Positions 7,590 to 63,177 of a stretch of DNA of 64,000 nucleotides are shown one piece after another. Numbering within the stretch: the stretch's first letter is position 1; every line of letters starts with the position of its first letter. The stretch comes from Gammaproteobacteria bacterium. Lineage in GTDB: Bacteria > Pseudomonadota > Gammaproteobacteria > Arenicellales > Poriferihabitantaceae. The DNA is taken from positions 9,965 to 73,964 of the forward strand of contig JAJEAV010000005.1 in assembly GCA_022822625.1 (NCBI GenBank), read 5' to 3'. The translations under genes were made by a program, and so were the position numbers. The notes under the pieces were generated by a model. That model saw only the letters and a list, made by a program, of their open reading frames with translations, ran no database searches and was not told the origin of the DNA.

Positions 7590-7849
7590 ATGCTTGAAAT
7601 TCTGGGGGGATCTTGGCAGGCAATGTCCTGAGTTTGCCGGGAATGTTCGGTCTGGGTATTGGCATGATGATTCGTTAACCGCATCTGGCTGGAAGTCTGG
7701 GCGGCTTTGTTGGCACATTGGTAGCCATGATATTTTCCGGATTCTCGCTTGCCCAGATCGATGTTCTTGAATTGACATTCCCGGTATGGGTTGGAATTGC
7801 TGCTGGTACGATCGGATGCATGATTCGCCATAGGGGTGCGACGGTATAG
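7590..7849 (+). pseudogene. Small glycine-rich membrane protein gene (GlsB/YeaQ/YmgE-like), disrupted
   Basis: ATG 7590 MLEILGG switches frame at a G6 run (7604-7609) to ILAGNVLSLPGMFGLGIGMMIR. An in-frame TAA follows at 7676-7678, then LAGSLGGFVGTLVAMIFSGFSL...GIAAGTIGCMI to TAG 7847-7849. Confidence 0.3.
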
Positions 7850-7917
7850 ACACCTTTTTTGGTCAGGAGTCGGGTTGGCTTCTTCCCTTGAAAGGTGACT
7901 GCGACAAAAGCGGTAGG

Positions 7918-8835
7918 TCAGAACTGTTGGTTATCGCCTTGATCGTATCCGGGGGCGATAACGAGATTTTCAACTCCATAGAGTGCTGGCCTGTTTTTTA
8001 GCCAGAGGTGGTATTCCGGTCCTTTCAGGATATGGTCTTGGGTGCAGTCCACATTCCATCTCCGAAGTGCATAGCCTGCAACCGCAGCCCTTACCTTGAC
8101 ATTCAACACGCCGTTTTTCATCGCATAGTCGGCTTCAATTGTTTCTGGATGCTTGAGATTTGGGTGCGGTACAAGTTCCAGTTCCAGAATTCTATTCCAC
8201 TGAATATCCGATTCACGAGTTTCATGTTCACCAATCGGACTGTCGATAATCATGGGGTTGGAAATGCGGGTGACAACGAAATCGGAAAATCTCGATTGTT
8301 TTCGATCATAGCTCCGGATGTGCCAGCGTAGTCCGTTATCGACCAGTACAAACGGAACAATTTCGCGGGTAGTCTTGCCGCTGCTAAGAGAGTGATAATC
8401 AATCCTTATCACTTTGTCCTGGTGTATGGCGCGGGTCAAAACCGACAGGGTTGAGAGTGATGGCCTGTTCATCTGCATGGGCGTCTCGCACGAAATTAAC
8501 GCCCGGTTTGCACCAGCAAAGTCGCTTCCAAAGCCATGTGTAAGTGCTGACAAAACCTGGTTAGACGAAGCATCGTATAGAGGCGAGAAAAGGTCTGAAC
8601 GTTCATAAGTCTTGGCCTTGGTATCGTACCTTAGATTGGTTGGGGCCAGTTCCCTGTACAAGGTTATATCCCTGGTTGCCGCTGCTCCCTTGATGCCAAA
8701 TCGGGTCACAAGGTCGTTGCGACTGATGGTTCCCAGAAAACCGATTCTGAAATCGATGTAGGCGAGACGTTCTTTCTGCGCCTTTGCAATGACTTTAGCT
8801 GGGGTAGGAGGAAGTTGATATCCGATTTCCATCAT
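7918..8835 (-). CDS. wHTH-WYL transcriptional regulator (BrxR/CapW-like)
   Basis: N-terminal ERLAYIDFRIGFLGTISRNDLVTRFGIKGAAATRDITLYRELAPTNLRYD (wHTH pattern of BrxR/CapW) and a WYL core VIRIDYHSLSSGKTTREIVPFVLVDNGLRWHIRSYDRKQSRFSDFVVTRI. 305 aa. Confidence 0.75.
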   Translation of the reverse strand: MMEIGYQLPPTPAKVIAKAQKERLAYIDFRIGFLGTISRNDLVTRFGIKGAAATRDITLYRELAPTNLRYDTKAKTYERSDLFSPLYDASSNQVLSALTHGFGSDFAGANRALISCETPMQMNRPSLSTLSVLTRAIHQDKVIRIDYHSLSSGKTTREIVPFVLVDNGLRWHIRSYDRKQSRFSDFVVTRISNPMIIDSPIGEHETRESDIQWNRILELELVPHPNLKHPETIEADYAMKNGVLNVKVRAAVAGYALRRWNVDCTQDHILKGPEYHLWLKNRPALYGVENLVIAPGYDQGDNQQF

Positions 8836-8850
8836 GTTTTCTTGATCATG

Positions 8851-8866
8851 ATATATTATAATATAT
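8851..8866. promoter_or_regulatory. Perfect 16-bp palindrome atatattataatatat in the divergent control region (candidate operator)
   Basis: Self-complementary when checked base by base. Lies 16 nt upstream of the WYL gene's ATG. The 11-mer tataatatata recurs at 8857-8867 and 8877-8887. Confidence 0.4.
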
Positions 8867-8896
8867 ACTATTACTATATAATATATAAATAATTAG

Positions 8897-8926
8897 TTGA
8901 CATACTCATATTGATTATAATATTAT
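8897..8926 (+). promoter_or_regulatory. Possible sigma70 promoter for the plus-strand cluster
   Basis: TTGACA at 8897-8902, an 18-nt spacer, then TATTAT at 8921-8926. Many alternative TATAAT-like hexamers occur nearby, so the assignment is tentative. Confidence 0.25.
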
Positions 8927-9090
8927 TGAATAACATCTTGCGGCAGTTACCGGATAAAAAGGATTTCGCGCAAGACAAGAGTCACGAAAAGGTTTTTCAT
9001 TTTTACGCACAGAATTATACATAACAAAGGCTTCGCCCTCTTGTCCAATGGAGTGTTAACTGGTGATTGCCTTCGCTGAAAGAGACAACG

Positions 9091-9549
9091 ATGGATAACA
9101 ATCAATTACGTTTCGTCCCCTGCGATGCAGGGTGTGGGATGTCCATTTGGACCAGGACTCCCAATGGAAAAGATTGCAGGATTGACCTTGGACGATCTGC
9201 CACATTCTCGCCAGTCAAGTACTTTCCAAAACACAACCTGAATCATTCGGTCGATTTCCTGACTCACCGCCATACGCCACCTGGGAGTGGTGTATATGCA
9301 AAATACCTGTCAGGACATGGGCGTCAATACAAAAACCTGACTGGAAAATTCTTGTCGTCATGCTTCATTGAAGAGGTGGCGTGCACCTGTTCCAGAATGG
9401 AGGAATGGTGTAGGGATAATATGAAAACAGCATCGGGAGGTATTGCAGCAAGGGCCTCGGGCCTTGCTTTTCGCATTAACGAACTGAAATCAGTCTTCGC
9501 CAGATTTCCTCTTAACGGAGGCCCTGCCTTGTCTGCTCTTGTACTGTAA
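9091..9549 (+). CDS. Hypothetical protein; half-length paralogue of the downstream MBL-fold-like protein
   Basis: LRFVPCDAGCGMSIWTRTPNGKDCRIDLGRSATFSPVKY parallels LHFTLWDVRRGISIWIRTPNGQDHWIDLGRIPEFSPSKY of the next ORF. It carries LTHRH and ends where the C-terminal half of the paralogue would begin. Confidence 0.5.
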   Translation: MDNNQLRFVPCDAGCGMSIWTRTPNGKDCRIDLGRSATFSPVKYFPKHNLNHSVDFLTHRHTPPGSGVYAKYLSGHGRQYKNLTGKFLSSCFIEEVACTCSRMEEWCRDNMKTASGGIAARASGLAFRINELKSVFARFPLNGGPALSALVL

Positions 9550-9583
9550 GGCCAAACCCAACCTTTATACAAGGAAAACAACC

Positions 9584-10450
9584 ATGACCAACGAACCACT
9601 TCACTTCACCCTCTGGGATGTCAGACGCGGAATATCCATCTGGATAAGAACTCCCAATGGACAAGACCATTGGATTGATCTTGGCCGCATACCAGAATTC
9701 TCTCCCAGCAAATACGTCAGAAAAAATCATTCGATAGGTTCAATAGAATTGTTGATCATCAGCAGGGCAGGCAAGACACATCTCGAAGACTTGCCGTCAT
9801 TCAAAGATCATTTCTCTTATCCATCTGTCCTTTATCGAAACCCGACAATCCCTGAAGCAGAGATATTTGGAGGCATGACACACAAATATCAGAAGCAATA
9901 TGCTGAATTGCACAGAAGATTTAACTGGCCGGGAGGCGATGATAATCCAGAAAGACCGTCAAACAATGGCGGGATAAGATACGCAATAAACTGTCTTGAT
10001 CATGGTTCCGTAGTCAGCAACCCCGCGCTTCCCGAATCTGCCGTGATTGAAAACAACAATACTTCCATAGTTGTGATGTTGCTGTATGCGGGCGTGCTGT
10101 TTGTCTGCCCGGGAGATATTGAGCCGCTTGGATGGCGCGAGCAATGGCATCACTACTCGAAAGAATATAAATACCTCATAAATCATTCACATGCGAGATT
10201 TCTGGTTGCTCCACAGCGCGGACACAAGGATGCCTACTGTGAGGAAATGATGGAGGCAATCCAGCCCCATGCCACCTTCATCAATGATGTCTGGGGAGAG
10301 TCCGAAATTCACCCGTCCTATAAAAGCGATCCGATAGGAATTCTCTATCGGGAGTCAGGGATGAAGAAGTATTTCTCGACCCGGCGAGCCGGGTCGGTCC
10401 GAGTCGCTGTCTACCCGAGTGGAGAGCACTGTATTCTTCAACGTAGCTGA
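9584..10450 (+). CDS. ComEC/Rec2-type metallo-beta-lactamase-fold-like protein with substituted metal ligands
   Basis: FTLWDVRRGISIWIRTPNGQDHWIDLG resembles FLDVGQGDxxLIxTPxGKxxLIDxG. NNTSIVVMLLYAGVLFVCPGDIE resembles NxxSLVLxxxYGxxxFLLxGDxE. LVAPQRGHKD sits in place of LKVxHHGSK. The HxHxDH position reads SRAGKTH. RBS aagga lies 8 nt before ATG 9584. Confidence 0.5.
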   Translation: MTNEPLHFTLWDVRRGISIWIRTPNGQDHWIDLGRIPEFSPSKYVRKNHSIGSIELLIISRAGKTHLEDLPSFKDHFSYPSVLYRNPTIPEAEIFGGMTHKYQKQYAELHRRFNWPGGDDNPERPSNNGGIRYAINCLDHGSVVSNPALPESAVIENNNTSIVVMLLYAGVLFVCPGDIEPLGWREQWHHYSKEYKYLINHSHARFLVAPQRGHKDAYCEEMMEAIQPHATFINDVWGESEIHPSYKSDPIGILYRESGMKKYFSTRRAGSVRVAVYPSGEHCILQRS

Positions 10451-10603
10451 CAAATGGGCAGGAGCAGGAATCTTGACTTGAAACCATGCCCTTGCCAAGG
10501 AGTATGCAATTGATAACAGATGCAAGTTGAGCAGAAGGAATGAAGAGTGTTATGAGAATGCTTCATGCTACCGACATTATGTTCATATGTTAGAGGATGA
10601 CCG

Positions 10604-10939
10604 GTGGAATATATTTATATTGCTTCCTGGACTTTCATGCTCATAGGGATTTACTACTTGTGGTCAGTAGACCGGAGGGGGAAGTTGAAGCATGAATCAT
10701 CGGAAGATATTGTTGGCTCTGGTCTTGCTGAAGACATTATTGACAGTTATATAGAGCCAGCGATGTTTGGCATCAGTCCTGCTGATCGCTTGTCCATTCG
10801 CAAGGATTTGCTTGCGCGTTTTAGCCAGAAATCTGGCGCCAAGATCGGTGAGCACAGATTCAATGGAAACATGCTGCACCACTGGATGAAATACAACGCT
10901 GCACGACTGATTGTTGAACACAGGAACGACATGCAGTGA
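10604..10939 (+). CDS. Hypothetical single-pass membrane protein
   Basis: GTG start preceded by gagga. N-terminal hydrophobic helix IYIASWTFMLIGIYYLW followed by an ~85-aa soluble tail. I recognise no family. Confidence 0.4.
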   Translation: MEYIYIASWTFMLIGIYYLWSVDRRGKLKHESSEDIVGSGLAEDIIDSYIEPAMFGISPADRLSIRKDLLARFSQKSGAKIGEHRFNGNMLHHWMKYNAARLIVEHRNDMQ

Positions 10940-11095
10940 GGATGTTCGCATTATCAGGACAAAGTCGGGCATTCTGGTGCCATCAAGAAGACTTTTACCT
11001 TGAATCGAATTATTTGACAACGAGATGAAGCAACAAGAAATGTATCCAAATTCAGAAGATCATATTTTACTCACACTATTTTTGGAGAATAGGCA

Positions 11096-11515
11096 ATGAA
11101 AAGAGTCTTATTAATTGCAATAGCTGTATCTGTGTTGACCGGATGTTTCGATGATGCAAAATTGGCATCACGAAATTTAAGCAAGGCTGCCGACAATTTT
11201 GAAGTCATGCGCCGGGTAGTATTCATGAATGGAATAACTGATGCCTACATGCTGGAGATAGTTGGTTTGTGTTCAATTACAGACCAGGAGCATCAACTCG
11301 AAGTTACTTGTAAAAACGGTGATCAGTACGTTAAGCATTTTCTGGGTCTAAGTGACAATGTGACCTATTTCACCGAGCAGCTGACCGCGATAAACGTTTC
11401 GGCAAGTCATTATCGAGTTACTTTCAAGCCGCAGGCGATTATTCCTGATTTTGATCTACGAGGTAGTTTTGAGGAGTTGATCACGAATAGTTCAGAAATC
11501 AATAGTCAAGGGTAG
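11096..11515 (+). CDS. Lipoprotein (phage/plasmid-type small beta-rich lipoprotein)
   Basis: Signal peptide with lipobox MKRVLLIAIAVSVLTG|C, and RBS ggaga. From memory, ASRNLSKAADNFEVMRRVVFMNGITD...LGLSDNVTYF...YRVTFKP resembles lipoproteins seen on plasmids and prophages. Confidence 0.6.
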   Translation: MKRVLLIAIAVSVLTGCFDDAKLASRNLSKAADNFEVMRRVVFMNGITDAYMLEIVGLCSITDQEHQLEVTCKNGDQYVKHFLGLSDNVTYFTEQLTAINVSASHYRVTFKPQAIIPDFDLRGSFEELITNSSEINSQG

Positions 11516-11577
11516 TGAAGGCCGTGACGGATTTAATTGGGCCACATCGCATAGATGAGTCATGTTTTTAACAACCC

Positions 11578-11814
11578 ATGGCAAGACCGGAACTGGTCAA
11601 ATCTCTCTATAAACTCCTTGGCATTGATCAAAGTCTGCCATTATTTCAGGAATCAGAGATATATCTAATTCTCAAAAATGTCACTTATAGAGTAGATAGG
11701 CTGAAGACTGAATCAACATTGCTGATACCGCTTTGTGAAAGCGGTGAGTTGATGATTGTCGGGGCGGAATACGATCTCAAATCCGGCGAGGTGGATTTCT
11801 CTTTGGAGAGTTGA
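11578..11814 (+). pseudogene. Possible C-terminal remnant of a beta-carbonic anhydrase
   Basis: NVTYRVDRLKTESTLLIPLCESGELMIVGAEYDLKSGEVDF resembles the beta-CA C-terminus (NVxxQVxxLxxSPxL...GxLxIxGAxYDLxTGxV). The zinc-binding N-terminal two thirds are absent. Confidence 0.3.
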
Positions 11815-12096
11815 TTAGTGATGGGCATAGTTGGTTACAATACCATTAGAAGCAACGATGATTTCTCAATCTGGTTTTGTGTAAATAATGGGACCTTGGC
11901 ATGATATCTATTGATTTATTGCCATTCTCCAATACTTGGTTTGATTATGGCCGTTTGTAGCTTTGGAGATTCACAGTGCTCTGCTGGCGATGCAAGGCAT
12001 GCTTGGTATTCAGAAATACAATATTCCTCAAAAAAATAATAGGGTTAGTTTTTTGACTCGGCAAACGACAATAATATACAAAACGAGGTCAAGTTT

Positions 12097-12737
12097 ATGA
12101 GTAAGGCGAGAGGAGTAAGGCGAGAGACGATCTTGAGAATTCTTTAAAAGGCAAGACTTTTGGAACAGTTTTAGCAGATCCGCCTTGGCGGTTTACCAAC
12201 AGGACCGGGAAGGTTGCTCCTGAGCATCATCGTCTTTCTCGGTATGGAACATTGTCCTTCGAGGAAATAAAGGATCTACCTGTTATCGACTTGATGGAAG
12301 ATGTAGCACACTGTTATCTATGGGTTCCGAATGCACTGCTGCCATATGGCTTGAATACGCTTGCCGCATGGGGGTTTCAATACAAGACCAACTTGATTTG
12401 GCATAAAGTCAGAAAGGACGGCGGATCAGACGGGCGAGGGGTTGGTTTTTACTTTCGCAACGTCACAGAAGTGGTGTTGTTTGGAGTTAAAGGGAAAAAC
12501 GCCCGGACTCTACCTCCAGGGCGAAGCCAGGTTAATTTGATTGCTGCCCGAAAGCGTGAGCATTCTCGTAAACCTGATGAGCAATATGACCTGATTGAGA
12601 GATGTAGCTGGGGCCCGTACCTCGAATTATTTGGTCGAGGCACGCGAGAGGGGTGGACAGTCTGGGGTAATGAAGCAGTCAAATATCAACCCGACTGGCC
12701 AACCTACCCATACAACTCTGCTGTTGCAGCTCAATGA
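12097..12737 (+). pseudogene. MT-A70-family DNA methyltransferase (DPPW), frameshifted by a 14-bp tandem duplication
   Basis: FGTVLADPPWRF (DPPW at 12177-12188) and downstream HCYLWVPNALL...EHSRKPDE. ATG 12097 runs into TAA 12145-12147. Removing one 14-nt copy restores a 208-aa ORF. Confidence 0.8.
12099..12126. repeat. Perfect 14-bp tandem duplication (gagtaaggcgagag x2)
   Basis: 12099-12112 equals 12113-12126, checked base by base. Confidence 0.95.
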
Positions 12738-13482
12738 AAACCATTGCGGATCTAAAGGATGTAGGATTTGACATTCATGCCGTCAATCACGCTATGGCGG
12801 TTCTAACGAAGGACTTCCCTGACCCTTTGGGAGAATTATGCTCAGCCCTTCTTGATATCCATATTCCAGATGTAGAGTTGGTCAAGTCAGGAGGTGGTGA
12901 ATCGCCGGTTACACAAAGACTGCGCAGGGAATTAACAGAATTGAACTGGCTAAAGCGAAGGGTCGTAATCAGAAAAACAGTTGACAATGTCGAGAGACAT
13001 TCAATCACACATGAGATTGATCACATGAGATTGATCACATGAGGGTGACTGAAAAAGGAGTAGTTGCATTAGAGATCGAGTGGAACAACAAAGATCCGTT
13101 TTTTAATCGTGATCTTGATAATTTCCAGCGACTGCATAGCGAGGGGGCAATTAGCGTTGGTGTCATTGTTACCCGTGGTAGTTCTCTTCAGGAAAACCTA
13201 ATCCAAATCATAAGTGCATGCGTTATGAGGCATAAAGTTGCAGAGTTCGGGGATTTGGAAATGCATTACGATTGGGTGCCGACTCCAAGACAACGTAACA
13301 ACATGAGGGATAAAAAGGGAGACTTTGGCCAGGAGTGGGTCAAGCAGTTCGTTAAAGACAAATTTGGACAATCGACCACACACTGGAAAAAATTGCAGGA
13401 TAGGATAAAGCGCGGAGTTGGCAACCCATGTCCATTACTTTTGGTCGGTATACCAGACACAGTTATTTATCAAGGGAAATAA
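12734..13482 (+). pseudogene. Type II restriction endonuclease (BamHI/BglII-like PD-(D/E)xK), split by a 14-bp tandem duplication
   Basis: HEID...VALEIEWNNKDPFFNRDLDNFQRL...GAISVGVIVTR parallels BamHI ID...VGMEFETGNISSAHRSMNKL...GEIDLAIILMP. The track shows two ORFs (12734-13042 and 13039-13482). Removing one repeat copy fuses them in frame (244 aa). ATGA overlap with the methylase stop. Confidence 0.65.
13008..13035. repeat. Perfect 14-bp tandem duplication (cacatgagattgat x2, plus a partial third copy cacatgag to 13043)
   Basis: 13008-13021 equals 13022-13035, checked base by base. Confidence 0.95.
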
Positions 13483-13601
13483 CTAACACAAAATAACGAG
13501 CGAGGCATAGCCAAAACGCTTTCCAAAAGTAGAAGTACCGCTAAACATATCGGGTCATTGACAATTGCATGTTCAGTACAGTAACTCGCTGGAAATTCGA
13601 T

Positions 13602-14391: not shown

Positions 14392-14429
14392 TTTCGAAAT
14401 AATATCGAAATTTCGAAATAATATCGAAA
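14392..14429. repeat. Perfect 19-bp tandem duplication (tttcgaaataatatcgaaa x2), intergenic
   Basis: 14392-14410 equals 14411-14429. It lies between the stop of the SRAP gene (14430) and the start of the esterase gene (14378). Confidence 0.95.
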
Positions 14430-15107
14430 TTAGCCGGTATTTGTACCTTGTTCAGGGTTGATCAAATGTGAACCCTGATTGGCCGGCCGGTTAACCTGTC
14501 TGCTAACCGGATAAGATTCAAATTCATCAGGATGTTGTAACATTGAAATGATGTGGAGCCAGTTCCTGCCTTTTTTGAGCCAGTCAAGGGCATGATCATG
14601 ATTTACTCTGACAGGCATGCGGGAGTGAATTTTGGCCAATTCCCCCATAGCTGAACGGGTAATGATGCTGCACGAATACAGCGGTTCGGTATTTTGTGGC
14701 CAGATGTCCCAGATTCCGGCAAGCATGATTGGTTCATCAGCTGCCAGATGAATGAAGTAAGGCTGTTTTCCTGAATCTTCATTTTTCCATTCGTAATATC
14801 CCCGGATAGGGACCAGGCAGGTTCTTGATTGTTTCCATGCTGTTCGGAAAGCAGGCTTCTCGGAAAGTGTTTCGATTCTTGCATTAAAGGTGGAGAATTT
14901 TGGGTTTATTTCCCTTGACCATGAAGGCACTAGTCCCCATCGCATTGACTGACCGGTTGGCCTGTTATTGTGGTGGTCATAGGTCAGTACTGGAATGTTG
15001 CCATTCGGAGCCATGTTGTAACTGGTTTCGCAGCCGAAAGGCCAGTCGACCAGCATTTCTTCCCAGGAACCGGGGTTGTCAATTTGATTTGCGAATCGGC
15101 CACACAT
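14430..15107 (-). CDS. SOS response-associated peptidase (SRAP/YedK family, abasic-site processing)
   Basis: N-terminal MCGRF catalytic Cys2 motif and 225 aa, which is typical of the SRAP family. Confidence 0.9.
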   Translation of the reverse strand: MCGRFANQIDNPGSWEEMLVDWPFGCETSYNMAPNGNIPVLTYDHHNNRPTGQSMRWGLVPSWSREINPKFSTFNARIETLSEKPAFRTAWKQSRTCLVPIRGYYEWKNEDSGKQPYFIHLAADEPIMLAGIWDIWPQNTEPLYSCSIITRSAMGELAKIHSRMPVRVNHDHALDWLKKGRNWLHIISMLQHPDEFESYPVSRQVNRPANQGSHLINPEQGTNTG

Positions 15108-18053: not shown

Positions 18054-18701
18054 TTGATATGTTATGAAAAGCAAGTTGCTGAAGAATCTGCCATGAAAGA
18101 AATACCACCCTGGATTTGGATTACCGCAGTTTTTACGATGACTGGAATTATTTTTGCTATTGGAAAATGGGTAGGGAATGTCAACTCCGACAGAAAATCC
18201 TTCGAGGAATTCATGAAGAGGGTTGAAGAGAAGATTGAGAAAATAAATGACAAATTTGAGAAAATGAATGACAAATTAGAAAAAATATTTCATTTTCTTC
18301 CTAATGAACCACTTGAGAAAAGAACCAGTCCAATATCTTTGACGGACTATGGCAAGAAACTATCACGGGAGATTAGTGCATCAGAAATTTCCGACATGGA
18401 ATTGACTAATGTAGCTGGGCAGGTTAAAGATTTGAATGCTTATCAAATTCAGGAGTACTGTTTTGAGTTTGCCAAAAACGAATTGCTCAAGAAGCTAAAG
18501 GAAAAGCATCTGGATTTCTATGACAAGATACATGAAGTAGCTTTTCATGAAGGTATAGAGGTAGAAAAACTTACACGAGTTATAGCTTTGGAGTTGAGAG
18601 ACAAAATTTTGTCCACTCTAAACAGGCCTCATTCTGAAATTGGAGCCCGCTTCTTAATTCTGAACATGCCTGAAGGAACGCAATGTCCGAATAATGCATA
18701 G
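18054..18701 (+). CDS. Hypothetical membrane-anchored coiled-coil protein (AT-rich orphan)
   Basis: TM helix WIWITAVFTMTGIIFAIGKWV followed by a heptad-like KRVEEKIEKINDKFEKMNDKLEKIF. ATG 18093 (MKEIPPW) is the more likely start. I recognise no family. Confidence 0.5.
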   Translation: MICYEKQVAEESAMKEIPPWIWITAVFTMTGIIFAIGKWVGNVNSDRKSFEEFMKRVEEKIEKINDKFEKMNDKLEKIFHFLPNEPLEKRTSPISLTDYGKKLSREISASEISDMELTNVAGQVKDLNAYQIQEYCFEFAKNELLKKLKEKHLDFYDKIHEVAFHEGIEVEKLTRVIALELRDKILSTLNRPHSEIGARFLILNMPEGTQCPNNA

Positions 18702-18834
18702 GGAGAAATCGTGTTTCGTAGCATGAGAATCCGATGAGAAGCAATTGGGTAGGCAAGGACCATTTAGACTGAATTTCTGAGTGCTATTTTGCCCGAAATT
18801 CCCTCAAGTTCCTGATTCACAGCGAAATTCCCTT

Positions 18835-19018: not shown

Positions 19019-20779
19019 TTACCTTTTCTTCGGCATATACAGGTCCGTGATCGTTCCCTCAAAGGCCTCGGCAGCAAAACCAAGAGTCTCCGCCAGAGTC
19101 GGATGTGCATGGATCGTCAGTCCAATATCTTCGGCATCGGCGTTCATTTCGATAGCGAGACCCGCCTCGGCGATCAAGTCTCCGGCATTGGTGCCGGTAA
19201 TACCTGCACCAATGATACGATTGCTCTGGTTGTCGAACAGCAGTTTGGTAACACCCTCGTTTCTGCCAAGAGCCAGGGAGCGGCCGCTGGCAGCCCAGGG
19301 AAACACTCCTTTTCCGTAGTCTAGACCTTTTGCCTTGGCTTCGGTTTCAGTTACACCAACCCACGCGACTTCAGGGTCTGTATAGGCCACTGACGGAATT
19401 ACCCTGGCTTCAAAGCTGCTCTTCATGCCAGTAGCAACTTCTGCTGCGACCTTTCCCTCATGGACGGCCTTGTGTGCCAACATGGGTTGTCCGACAATAT
19501 CTCCGATGGCAAAAACATGACCAACATTGGTTCTTTGTTGATTGTCGACCGCAATAAACCCTCGTTCATCAACATTGATACCGGCCGATTCGGCACTAAT
19601 CTCCTTTCCATTCGGCATACGTCCTACACAGACCAGAACTTTATCGAAGATCATTGAATCTGGCGCATTCTTTCCTTCCAGGCTGACTTCAAGCCCCTCT
19701 TTACTGGCATTGATGCCCTTGACTCGCGTCTCCAGCCAGATGTTCGCATATCGCGACTTGATTCGCTTCAACAGAGGTTTAACCAAATCCGGGTCGGTTC
19801 CTGGCATCAGGTTTTTCATCATTTCAACAATATGGATTTTGCTGCCTAGCGAATGATAGACCGTAGCCATTTCAAGTCCGATAATGCCCCCGCCGATAAT
19901 GAGAAGATCATCAGGAATGTCGGTTAATTCCAGCGCCCCGGTCGAATCAATCAGACGTGAGTCATCATGAGGAAAGCCCGGTAACTCTACGGGACGGGAA
20001 CCTGCGGCAATAATCGCCTGATCAAAAGTTACAGTCTGACCGTTATCCAGGCTGATCGATCTGGAAGAACTGAATCTGCCAGTTGCCTGAACTACGCGAA
20101 CCTTTCTTTTCCTGGCAAGCCCGGCAAGCCCTCCCGTCAGTTGACTGACAATATTGTTCTTCCACTTCAATGTCTGTGTGATATCCAGTCTGGGATGTTC
20201 GAAAAGAACTCCGGCTTCGCTGATCTCTTCGCTTTCGTCAATCATTTTGGCAACGTGCAGGAGCGCTTTTGAAGGGATACATCCGACATTCAAGCAGACC
20301 CCGCCCAAACTCGGGTAGCGCTCAACCATGATTACGTCAAGACCAAGATCTGCCGCCCGGAATGCAGCAGTATAGCCACCGGGCCCAGACCCCAATACCA
20401 CTAGTTGTGCATGCATGTCACCTTCAACTTCAAGTGCGTCAGAGCCGGGTTTTCGAGTTTCGACAGGAGTCGAACTTGTCTCGACAGATTCTGCTTCTTT
20501 TTCTTCAGTCGTTTCCTCTGGAGTTGACTGCTGGTCGGTAGTTCCATCGATATCCAGTTCAATCAGGGGATGACCCATGGACACCGGGTCGCCTACGGAG
20601 ACCAGTAACTTGACGACAGTACCCCCTTCAGGCGAGGGGATTTCCATGATCGCCTTATCGCTCTCAATGGCCAGGATATTATCTTCTGCTTCGACCGTAT
20701 CTCCTTCCGAGACATAGATTTCAACAATCGGGACATTTTCAAAATCTCCCAAATCCGGTGTTTTTATTGTTTTTGCCAT
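19019..20779 (-). CDS. lpdA: Dihydrolipoyl dehydrogenase (E3) with N-terminal lipoyl domain
   Basis: N-terminal lipoyl motif ESDKAIMEIPSP, FAD motif GSGPGGY, redox-active CLNVGCIPSK; 586 aa. Confidence 0.9.
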   Translation of the reverse strand: MAKTIKTPDLGDFENVPIVEIYVSEGDTVEAEDNILAIESDKAIMEIPSPEGGTVVKLLVSVGDPVSMGHPLIELDIDGTTDQQSTPEETTEEKEAESVETSSTPVETRKPGSDALEVEGDMHAQLVVLGSGPGGYTAAFRAADLGLDVIMVERYPSLGGVCLNVGCIPSKALLHVAKMIDESEEISEAGVLFEHPRLDITQTLKWKNNIVSQLTGGLAGLARKRKVRVVQATGRFSSSRSISLDNGQTVTFDQAIIAAGSRPVELPGFPHDDSRLIDSTGALELTDIPDDLLIIGGGIIGLEMATVYHSLGSKIHIVEMMKNLMPGTDPDLVKPLLKRIKSRYANIWLETRVKGINASKEGLEVSLEGKNAPDSMIFDKVLVCVGRMPNGKEISAESAGINVDERGFIAVDNQQRTNVGHVFAIGDIVGQPMLAHKAVHEGKVAAEVATGMKSSFEARVIPSVAYTDPEVAWVGVTETEAKAKGLDYGKGVFPWAASGRSLALGRNEGVTKLLFDNQSNRIIGAGITGTNAGDLIAEAGLAIEMNADAEDIGLTIHAHPTLAETLGFAAEAFEGTITDLYMPKKR

Positions 20780-62724: not shown

Positions 62725-63177
62725 CTATTCGGGATCGGGAATCACTGCGGTCGCCTCAATCTCCATCACCCACTCAGGTCTTGCCAGGCCCTGGACAATG
62801 AGCCCGGTCGATACCGGGTAGATGCCTTTCAACCACTTGCCAATTGCCTGATAGACATCATCGCGATACTTGCGATCGATGATATAGACCTGGATTCTGC
62901 AGATGTGTTCCAGTCTGGCGCCCACTTCCTCGAGTAATTGTTGCACATTCTGCATCGCTCGATCGGCCTGTGCATAGGCACCTTGTTCAGCAATGCTCTT
63001 GAAGTCATCGATATCCTGACCAACCTGTCCCCGTACAAAAACCATGGTGCCTTTTGCGCAGACCACCTGGCACAGATCGTTGTCGAGTTTCTGGTTGGGA
63101 TAGGTATCTCTTGTATTGAATTTGCGATGGCGGTAATGGATGCGATGGCGGTAATGGATATCACTCATGACGGACAT
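62725..63177 (-). CDS. RidA/YjgF-family protein with an internal 6-aa tandem duplication
   Basis: C-terminal ...VSTGLIVQGLARPEWVMEIEATAV is typical of RidA. The N-terminus contains IHYRHR-IHYRHR. Confidence 0.75.
   Translation of the reverse strand: MSVMSDIHYRHRIHYRHRKFNTRDTYPNQKLDNDLCQVVCAKGTMVFVRGQVGQDIDDFKSIAEQGAYAQADRAMQNVQQLLEEVGARLEHICRIQVYIIDRKYRDDVYQAIGKWLKGIYPVSTGLIVQGLARPEWVMEIEATAVIPDPE
63124..63159. repeat. Perfect 18-bp tandem duplication (gcgatggcggtaatggat x2), in frame within the RidA-family gene
   Basis: 63124-63141 equals 63142-63159, checked base by base. Confidence 0.95.

Follow-up and report, generated by a model that had tools for sequence, protein, structure and literature searches.

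The characterised BglII and BamHI restriction-modification (R-M) systems use N4-cytosine methylases. In other R-M systems, namely the phase-variable type III (mod) and type I (hsdS and hsdM) systems known as 'phasevarions', R-M activity is toggled as changes in the length of simple sequence repeats (SSRs) frameshift the genes (PMC5909438 and PMC7383803), and a short perfect tandem duplication inside the open reading frame (ORF) turns off the pneumococcal capsule gene cap3A (Waite et al. 2001, cited in PMC11163986). Here we analyse a stretch of 64,000 nucleotides (nt) of bacterial DNA (hereafter, the window; contig JAJEAV010000005.1 of assembly GCA_022822625.1, positions 9,965 to 73,964 of the forward strand) in which the two genes of a type II R-M pair, a methyltransferase (M) and an endonuclease (R), are each frameshifted by a perfect 14-nt tandem duplication. 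The host is an uncultured sponge-associated gammaproteobacterium close to Candidatus (Ca.) Poriferihabitans and to 'Arenicellales' metagenome-assembled genomes (MAGs); its era gene is 82-86% identical to those of three sponge-symbiont MAGs, namely CAR2_bin_8, Ca. Poriferihabitans and an 'Arenicellales' MAG. We consider it likely that an expendable type II R-M system was lost here recently, and in effect neutrally, through two slippage-type duplications.

Repeats were called by Tandem Repeats Finder and by a separate exhaustive scan, and both methods agree on the two duplications. The first, at 12099-12126 on the plus strand, consists of 2.0 copies of GAGTAAGGCGAGAG with a perfect period of 14 nt, covers M codons 1-6 and has no flanking microhomology (0 nt). 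It is a +14 frameshift, and M as found begins with the ATG at 12097 and ends at a stop codon at 12145-12147 after 16 codons. The second, at 13008-13043 on the plus strand, consists of 2.57 copies of CACATGAGATTGAT and lies in the HEID-HM codons of R, including those for the invariant D96; R as found is two ORFs, of 102 amino acids (aa; 12734-13042) and 147 aa (13039-13482). The locus thus contains no intact, expressible M or R ORF, as both are frameshifted by the 14-nt duplications. When one 14-nt copy is deleted in silico from each gene, M becomes an ORF of 627 nt (208 aa, beginning MSKARDDLENSLKGKTFGTVLADPPW; window positions 12097-12737) and R becomes an ORF of 735 nt (244 aa; 12734-13482), with the M stop codon and the R start codon overlapping as ATGA at 12734-12737. 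By chance, perfect duplications of at least 14 nt are expected only about 0.005 times per 64 kb, so the two in the R-M pair are not random. An earlier note on this DNA had described a perfect 14-nt tandem duplication in each gene, and the recovery of both ORFs with their ATGA overlap when one copy is excised; the repeat calls bear out the former and the in silico repair the latter.

From domain matches and predicted structure, the pair appears to be an MT-A70-family, N6-adenine-type methyltransferase coupled translationally to an endonuclease of BglII/BstYI fold, both now pseudogenes on the plus strand. The repaired M matches the Pfam MT-A70 domain over its full length (9e-28) and the PADLOC MTase_II model (1.7e-90), and its DPPW catalytic motif occupies residues 23-26. 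The repaired R matches Pfam Endonuc-BglII (PF09195; 4.6e-27) over profile positions 1-162 of 163. An AlphaFold model of R built from 29 sequences has a predicted local distance difference test score (pLDDT) of 87, and the only significant PDB matches to it in Foldseek are the BstYI structures 1VRR, 1SDO and 2P0J (probability 1.0, TM 0.5-0.65). Among R homologues the acidic residues H-E-x-D ... E-x-E are invariant. A PDB sequence search with the repaired R, followed by one with the 29-sequence R profile, gave no useful match and reached no PDB chain at the sequence level, and neither the repaired M nor the repaired R matched NCBIfam. Scanning of GTDB genomes identified more than 565 loci with a relative of R; the 80 homologous loci referred to throughout are those retrieved from this set. 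Because an MT-A70 gene adjoins R in every one of them (80/80), the pair represents a widespread type II R-M family, and this family is especially common among sponge-associated MAGs. Palindrome avoidance in the window was uninformative as a clue to the recognition site (observed/expected 0.99 for TGATCA, and 0.65 for AGATCT, which has only 8 sites).

The duplications are present in sequencing reads and do not depend on the assembly from which the window was taken. An exact-protein look-up found the same locus in the ENA scaffold KELL22-1_SAMN22237344 scaffold_422 (95 kb) and in a Logan contig of run SRR16351689; judging by the study code, the sample probably belongs to the metagenomes of Caribbean Ircinia sponges reported by Kelly et al. 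2022 (PMC9531527). Both contigs align to the window without any gap across 15-20 kb, and both contain, base for base, the two 14-nt duplications and a 19-nt duplication that lies downstream of the pair. They also run unbranched through both R-M duplications, with no break hinting at a common alternative allele. The Logan contig comes from a k=31 de Bruijn assembly that is independent of the window's own assembly. Because such an assembly requires the junction k-mers to occur in the reads, and because a repeat of 28-36 nt creates no graph ambiguity at k=31, the duplications are real. That they are artefacts of assembly or sequencing is therefore highly improbable, although the window is not faultless in this respect: an 18-nt duplication at 63123 falls just where the ENA assembly has a 100-N scaffold gap, and the window carries a 1-nt deletion at about position 218 that is not in the other two assemblies. 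A scaffold-gap artefact was rejected for the R-M duplications and applies to the duplication at 63123 only.

To place the lesions in time, the locus can be compared with that of close relatives. The 90%-identity cluster of the 147-aa R fragment has one other member, P0121, a 244-aa protein with 95% aa identity to the repaired R, whose gene lies on short contigs from two further BioSamples of the project (L165 and L166). L165 is about 97% identical to the window at the nucleotide level, shares with it the intergenic region upstream and the hydrolase gene downstream, and carries an intact M (208 aa) and an intact R (244 aa) with neither duplication; in L166, too, the pair is intact and both duplications are missing. 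Both are also absent from two more distant loci, L001 and L002, and hence both are derived in the window's strain. The earlier note had proposed a comparison of the locus in sister strains as a check, and this comparison, which is limited to a 2.5-kb sister contig, points to recent and not old lesions. Alleles closer to the window than these were not found: in the 15-billion-protein collection no intact allele exceeds 95% aa identity, the M fragment shares its 90%-identity cluster with more distant methylases only and with no intermediate alleles, and an exact 37-mer of the ancestral core had no match in JGI metagenomes or GTDB genomes, a collection that lacks the window's own genome. Exact look-ups of GroES and of a cytochrome c, made for more sister sequence, returned the same sample only.

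The sister contigs also show what the R site looked like before it was duplicated. In L165 and L166 it reads TTA-CACATGAG-ATTGAT-CACATGAG-GG, an 8-nt direct repeat at 14-nt spacing, a classic substrate for duplication by strand slippage, and it is because the ancestor already had this repeat that the R duplication has 2.57 copies and a period of 14 nt. We propose that the pair was inactivated by two independent replication-type errors, each producing a 14-nt tandem duplication: the one in R would have arisen by slipped mispairing between the pre-existing 8-nt direct repeats 14 nt apart, and the one in M would have arisen without microhomology. This bears on the identical length of the two lesions, which the earlier note had called unexplained. 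Duplications in the control sequences described below have lengths of 14, 15, 15, 15, 17, 19, 19, 21, 22 and 28 nt, so that two random draws are equal about 18% of the time; because of this frequency, and because one of the two lengths was dictated by the spacing of a pre-existing repeat, we treat the equality as coincidence. The puzzle is thereby largely explained.

Substitution patterns show that the pair was maintained until shortly before it was lost. The ratio of non-synonymous to synonymous substitution rates (dN/dS) is 0.10 for M and 0.26 for R in comparison with L165, and 0.05 and 0.11, respectively, in comparison with L001. With L001 and L002 as outgroups, the window branch carries 9 synonymous and 8 non-synonymous changes, and the split between the window and L165 corresponds to a dS of about 0.1. 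Purifying selection thus acted on the pair during most, if not all, of the period after that split. Given the low dN/dS and the balance of changes on the branch, the inactivation is recent on this scale, leaving no room for a long neutral phase.

Apart from the two duplications, neither M nor R contains any further stop codon or frameshift, and to this extent the earlier note's statement that there was no other obvious damage stands. It does not extend to missense changes, as M carries Q188E at a position that is 94% conserved and R carries D120N (codon AAT, 13105-13107, plus strand). Position 120 is an otherwise invariant Asp, found in 80/80 tblastn homologues and in all 28 other sequences of the protein alignment (A4). 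Because the codon is GAT in L165, L001 and L002, D120N is derived on the window branch. As D120N would stay in R after excision of the duplication, such an excision would not restore the ancestral protein; the description of the lesions as precisely reversible therefore applies to the full-length ORFs, which are regained, and not to the R product, which retains the change at an invariant residue. The change is compatible with R having been weakened or killed first and with M having become dispensable afterwards. Frameshifting duplications would have survived here because the genes were expendable.

Several ways in which the damaged genes might still function were considered. The second duplication creates a new ATGA stop/start overlap at 13039-13042 (plus strand), at which the C-terminal R fragment restarts at the native Met98, raising the possibility that the two parts of R are made together and complement one another. 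This is unlikely, given that in the AlphaFold model the split falls inside the predicted core beta-strand that carries D96, and given D120N. Rescue of M by an internal start codon, or by a new AGGAG motif at the duplication junction, was rejected: no in-frame ATG, GTG or TTG occurs in M before 12252, and because this first in-frame start falls downstream of DPPW, M is not rescuable.

Loss of the same pair can be seen elsewhere. In L001, from the 'Arenicellales' MAG, the M-R pair is 84% identical to that of the window, and in several assemblies M has a 1-nt deletion and R has a nonsense codon (194 aa); this loss is independent and older. M or R is damaged in about 4-5 of the 80 homologous loci, and a tandem duplication is the cause in none of them (0/80). 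The intact sister strains, the low dN/dS and the independent decay in a related species together bear out the first of two readings that the earlier note had offered, that of very recent neutral decay.

The two lesions are not the only short duplications in the window. A third perfect tandem duplication, 2.1 copies of the 19-nt unit TTTCGAAATAATATCGAAA, lies at 14392-14431 in intergenic DNA just upstream of the hydrolase gene; it touches the stop codon of an SRAP gene, is not part of the R-M pair and has 2 nt of microhomology. Four relatives lack it and all three assemblies of the sample have it; what it copies is a small hairpin-like motif, TTTCGA-N7-TCGAAA. At 63123-63159, the 18-nt duplication is in frame in the N-terminal extension of a RidA-like ORF (62725-63177, minus strand). 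At this site the ENA scaffold has its 100-N gap exactly between the copies, with one copy on each contig end (L169, 13962-14061), and the Logan contig ends 20 nt short of the duplication. It is therefore unreliable, its copy number being either polymorphic in the population or an artefact of assembly joining. This makes four perfect duplications of 14-19 nt in the window, all of them isolated and two-copy, of which three are solid. By comparison, 1.36 Mb of sequence around R-M homologues contains 10 duplications of 14-30 nt, and 1.38 Mb around era in Gammaproteobacteria contains none. Isolated perfect duplications of 14-19 nt also occur near R-M genes in other sponge-symbiont MAG loci (L001 at 20676-20713, and L009, L011, L021 and L025), and such lesions may be more frequent in the accessory regions of sponge symbionts in general.

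These counts, together with three other considerations, weigh against a simple history of recent neutral decay. The density of duplications in the window is 9-17 times that of the controls, which have 0-0.5 per 64 kb, and the Poisson probability of at least four in 64 kb is between 1e-4 and 1.4e-3; some local or lineage-specific mutational process may be at work. In addition, the three solid duplications (14, 14 and 19 nt) all fall within 2.34 kb, which is more clustered than uniform independent events would be: the probability that three of four uniform events lie so close is 0.015, or an estimated 0.03-0.07 if only tolerated DNA (intergenic or dispensable) is counted. The identity of the duplicate copies says little about their age, as only about 0.4 substitutions are expected in 28 nt at a branch divergence of about 1.5%. 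The weight given to D120N comes from the conservation of the residue, with its effect on function judged from sequence alone. Finally, the finding of no revertants comes from assemblies and not from reads, so rare revertants may exist.

Of the other processes that could have produced this pattern, one is a single local mutagenic episode, for example error-prone repair synthesis across a recombination or horizontal-transfer tract at the edge of the genomic island to which the pair belongs (described below), or repair after self-restriction on a failure of methylation. The three perfect duplications do lie within their 2.34 kb at the right edge of this acquired island, the other 61 kb of the window and about 17 kb of extra flank contain no others, save the unreliable one at 63123, and so few such events occur in the controls. 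However, the clustering of four events is only modestly significant, and selection alone would concentrate surviving frameshifts in dispensable DNA. Moreover, the three duplications are not alike in length or in microhomology (0, 8 and 2 nt), filling in of a BglII-type cut would duplicate 4 nt and not 14, and we know of no bacterial repair pathway established to leave 14-19-nt duplications as its signature. We regard such an episode as unlikely. Somewhat less likely still is an unusually rapid gain and loss of short perfect tandem duplications within this population of symbionts, whether by local hypermutation at the island edge or by population-level toggling of accessory genes that include the R-M pair. 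The earlier note had placed the locus in a lineage prone to short tandem duplications; the enrichment of the window, about 10-fold relative to 2.7 Mb of controls, agrees with this, but the three reliable duplications form a local cluster. As the extra flank yielded no further duplications, the evidence favours a local cluster or a selection filter over a genome-wide propensity, and the local cluster of three duplications stands as the one minor oddity of the locus. The 14-nt length shared by two unrelated sites also recalls the target-site duplications of a mobile element with a fixed 14-nt stagger that was later excised, and casposon-type integrases make target duplications of 14-15 nt. Yet the other duplications in the window are 19 and 18 nt, the one in R is fully explained by the 14-nt-spaced repeat, the island contains no element remnant, transposase or Cas1 gene, the relatives show no footprints, and excision in bacteria normally takes away one copy of the target duplication, all of which makes a transposon footprint barely credible.

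The second reading offered by the earlier note was a duplication-based ON/OFF switch, that is, a contingency (phase-variation) device in which gain and loss of the two duplications by slippage would toggle the R-M system as in cap3A. Several features could be read in this way: both lesions are exactly revertible in principle, the built-in 8-nt repeat at the R site favours both gain and loss, the duplication at 63123 looks incompletely resolved or polymorphic in the same sample, and a precedent exists in the pneumococcal type 3 capsule gene (Waite et al. 2001, cited in PMC11163986). Several findings speak against a switch. The single-copy allele on the window's haplotype occurs in none of the three assemblies and is not in the 15-billion-protein collection, and neither of the two independent assemblies branches at either site; where a phase-variable locus would present ON and OFF alleles in one population, this sample assembles the duplicated allele only, and intact alleles are confined to a 3%-diverged haplotype from other samples. 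Nor is a mutable repeat conserved among relatives. Duplications in M or R are found neither in the 80 homologous loci nor in L165 and L166, only the 8-nt repeat at the R site is common to the sister strain, and at the M duplication there is neither microhomology nor a repeat tract of the kind expected of an evolved hot spot. Furthermore, a return to ON would need two independent reversions, with M first as the safe order, and would leave D120N in R; two-copy 14-nt repeats revert at low rates; and the related species has lost the pair by irreversible lesions. With no revertant allele or assembly bubble, no duplications in the 80 loci and a missense change that would outlast reversion, the switch is very unlikely, and recent neutral decay is the reading that we retain.

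The R-M genes are part of an accessory (defence) island of about 5.75 kb (7851-13600) that lies between a cytochrome NapC/NirT remnant and the alpha/beta-hydrolase gene; this assignment follows from two relatives (L086 and L087) that lack the island and in which its flanks are adjacent. Besides the pair, the island contains a WYL/BrxR-like regulator (7918-8835, minus strand), a PADLOC PDC-M48B-like candidate defence gene (9539-10450) preceded by a truncated paralogue of it (9067-9549), a Phage_VG64-family gene (11096-11515), and the 3'-end remnant of a beta-carbonic-anhydrase gene, a C-terminal ORF of 78 aa (11578-11814, plus strand). L001 has a full-length beta-carbonic-anhydrase gene (8448-9065) directly upstream of the same M-R pair, and window positions 11686-11820 are 78.5% identical to L001 positions 8934-9067, so the R-M pair, when it moved, seems to have taken along 135 nt of the gene beside which it once lay. 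The island as a whole may be a decaying multi-system defence island. In a related species (L175, from a JGI sample), an XcyI-type endonuclease gene and an N6_N4 methylase gene (7712-9996) lie downstream of the same hydrolase gene; because relatives carry different cargo after this gene, the site is a variable hot spot at which defence genes integrate. Scans of the window against Rfam and for tRNAs returned nothing.

Comparison of the three assemblies brought up differences elsewhere in the window as well. At about position 218 one C is missing relative to the ENA and Logan sequences (...CCCTGG[C]GATGTC...), which splits a 292-aa M48 peptidase gene and leaves a 233-aa ORF (219-920); the difference reflects either an error in the assembly from which the window was taken or variation among strains. 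The ENA scaffold and the window differ by ten single-nucleotide polymorphisms, 7 of which fall within 135 nt (18616-18750) in an ORF of unknown function (18054-18701); this suggests that the population sampled was a mixture of strains or had undergone recombination over a small tract. Near this cluster there is an imperfect repeat, 2.5 copies of 21 nt, at 18235-18287.

These results have implications for how defence systems are lost and for how such losses are read. The locus is a clean, well-dated case of a dispensable defence system dying in a sponge symbiont, with three stages visible: the sister strains still have it intact, here it has just been frameshifted, and in a related species its decay has gone further. 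It also counsels caution, as a lesion that looks precisely reversible is not evidence of a switch. The finding would carry more weight only if reads were to show that short tandem duplications are a dominant and reversible class of mutation in this lineage; it would then have a bearing on the ways in which uncultured symbionts adjust their sets of defence genes.

Set against known systems, the pair belongs to an R-M family already known and is an ordinary pseudogenised example of it. It resembles other cases of R-M pseudogenisation in that both genes are frameshifted and a related species has lost the pair by other lesions; it differs in that tandem duplication, of the same length in each gene, accounts for both lesions, and in that these belong to a local cluster of three such events. 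With cap3A it shares a perfect short duplication inside an ORF that is exactly revertible in principle, but cap3A involves many different duplications, measurable reversion, one gene and alternating selection, whereas here there are two fixed duplications in two genes, an extra missense change and no sign of revertants or recurrence. SSR phase-variable R-M genes differ more plainly, as their frameshifts come from long tracts of 1-7-nt units that are conserved across strains, and no such conserved repeats occur in the 80 relatives of this pair. There is also a likeness to the BglII/BstYI type II systems: R matches PF09195 over its full length, its predicted fold is closest to that of BstYI, and a methyltransferase gene lies adjacent. 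There are differences, in that the partner methylase belongs to the MT-A70 family, with a DPPW motif, and in that both genes are inactive.

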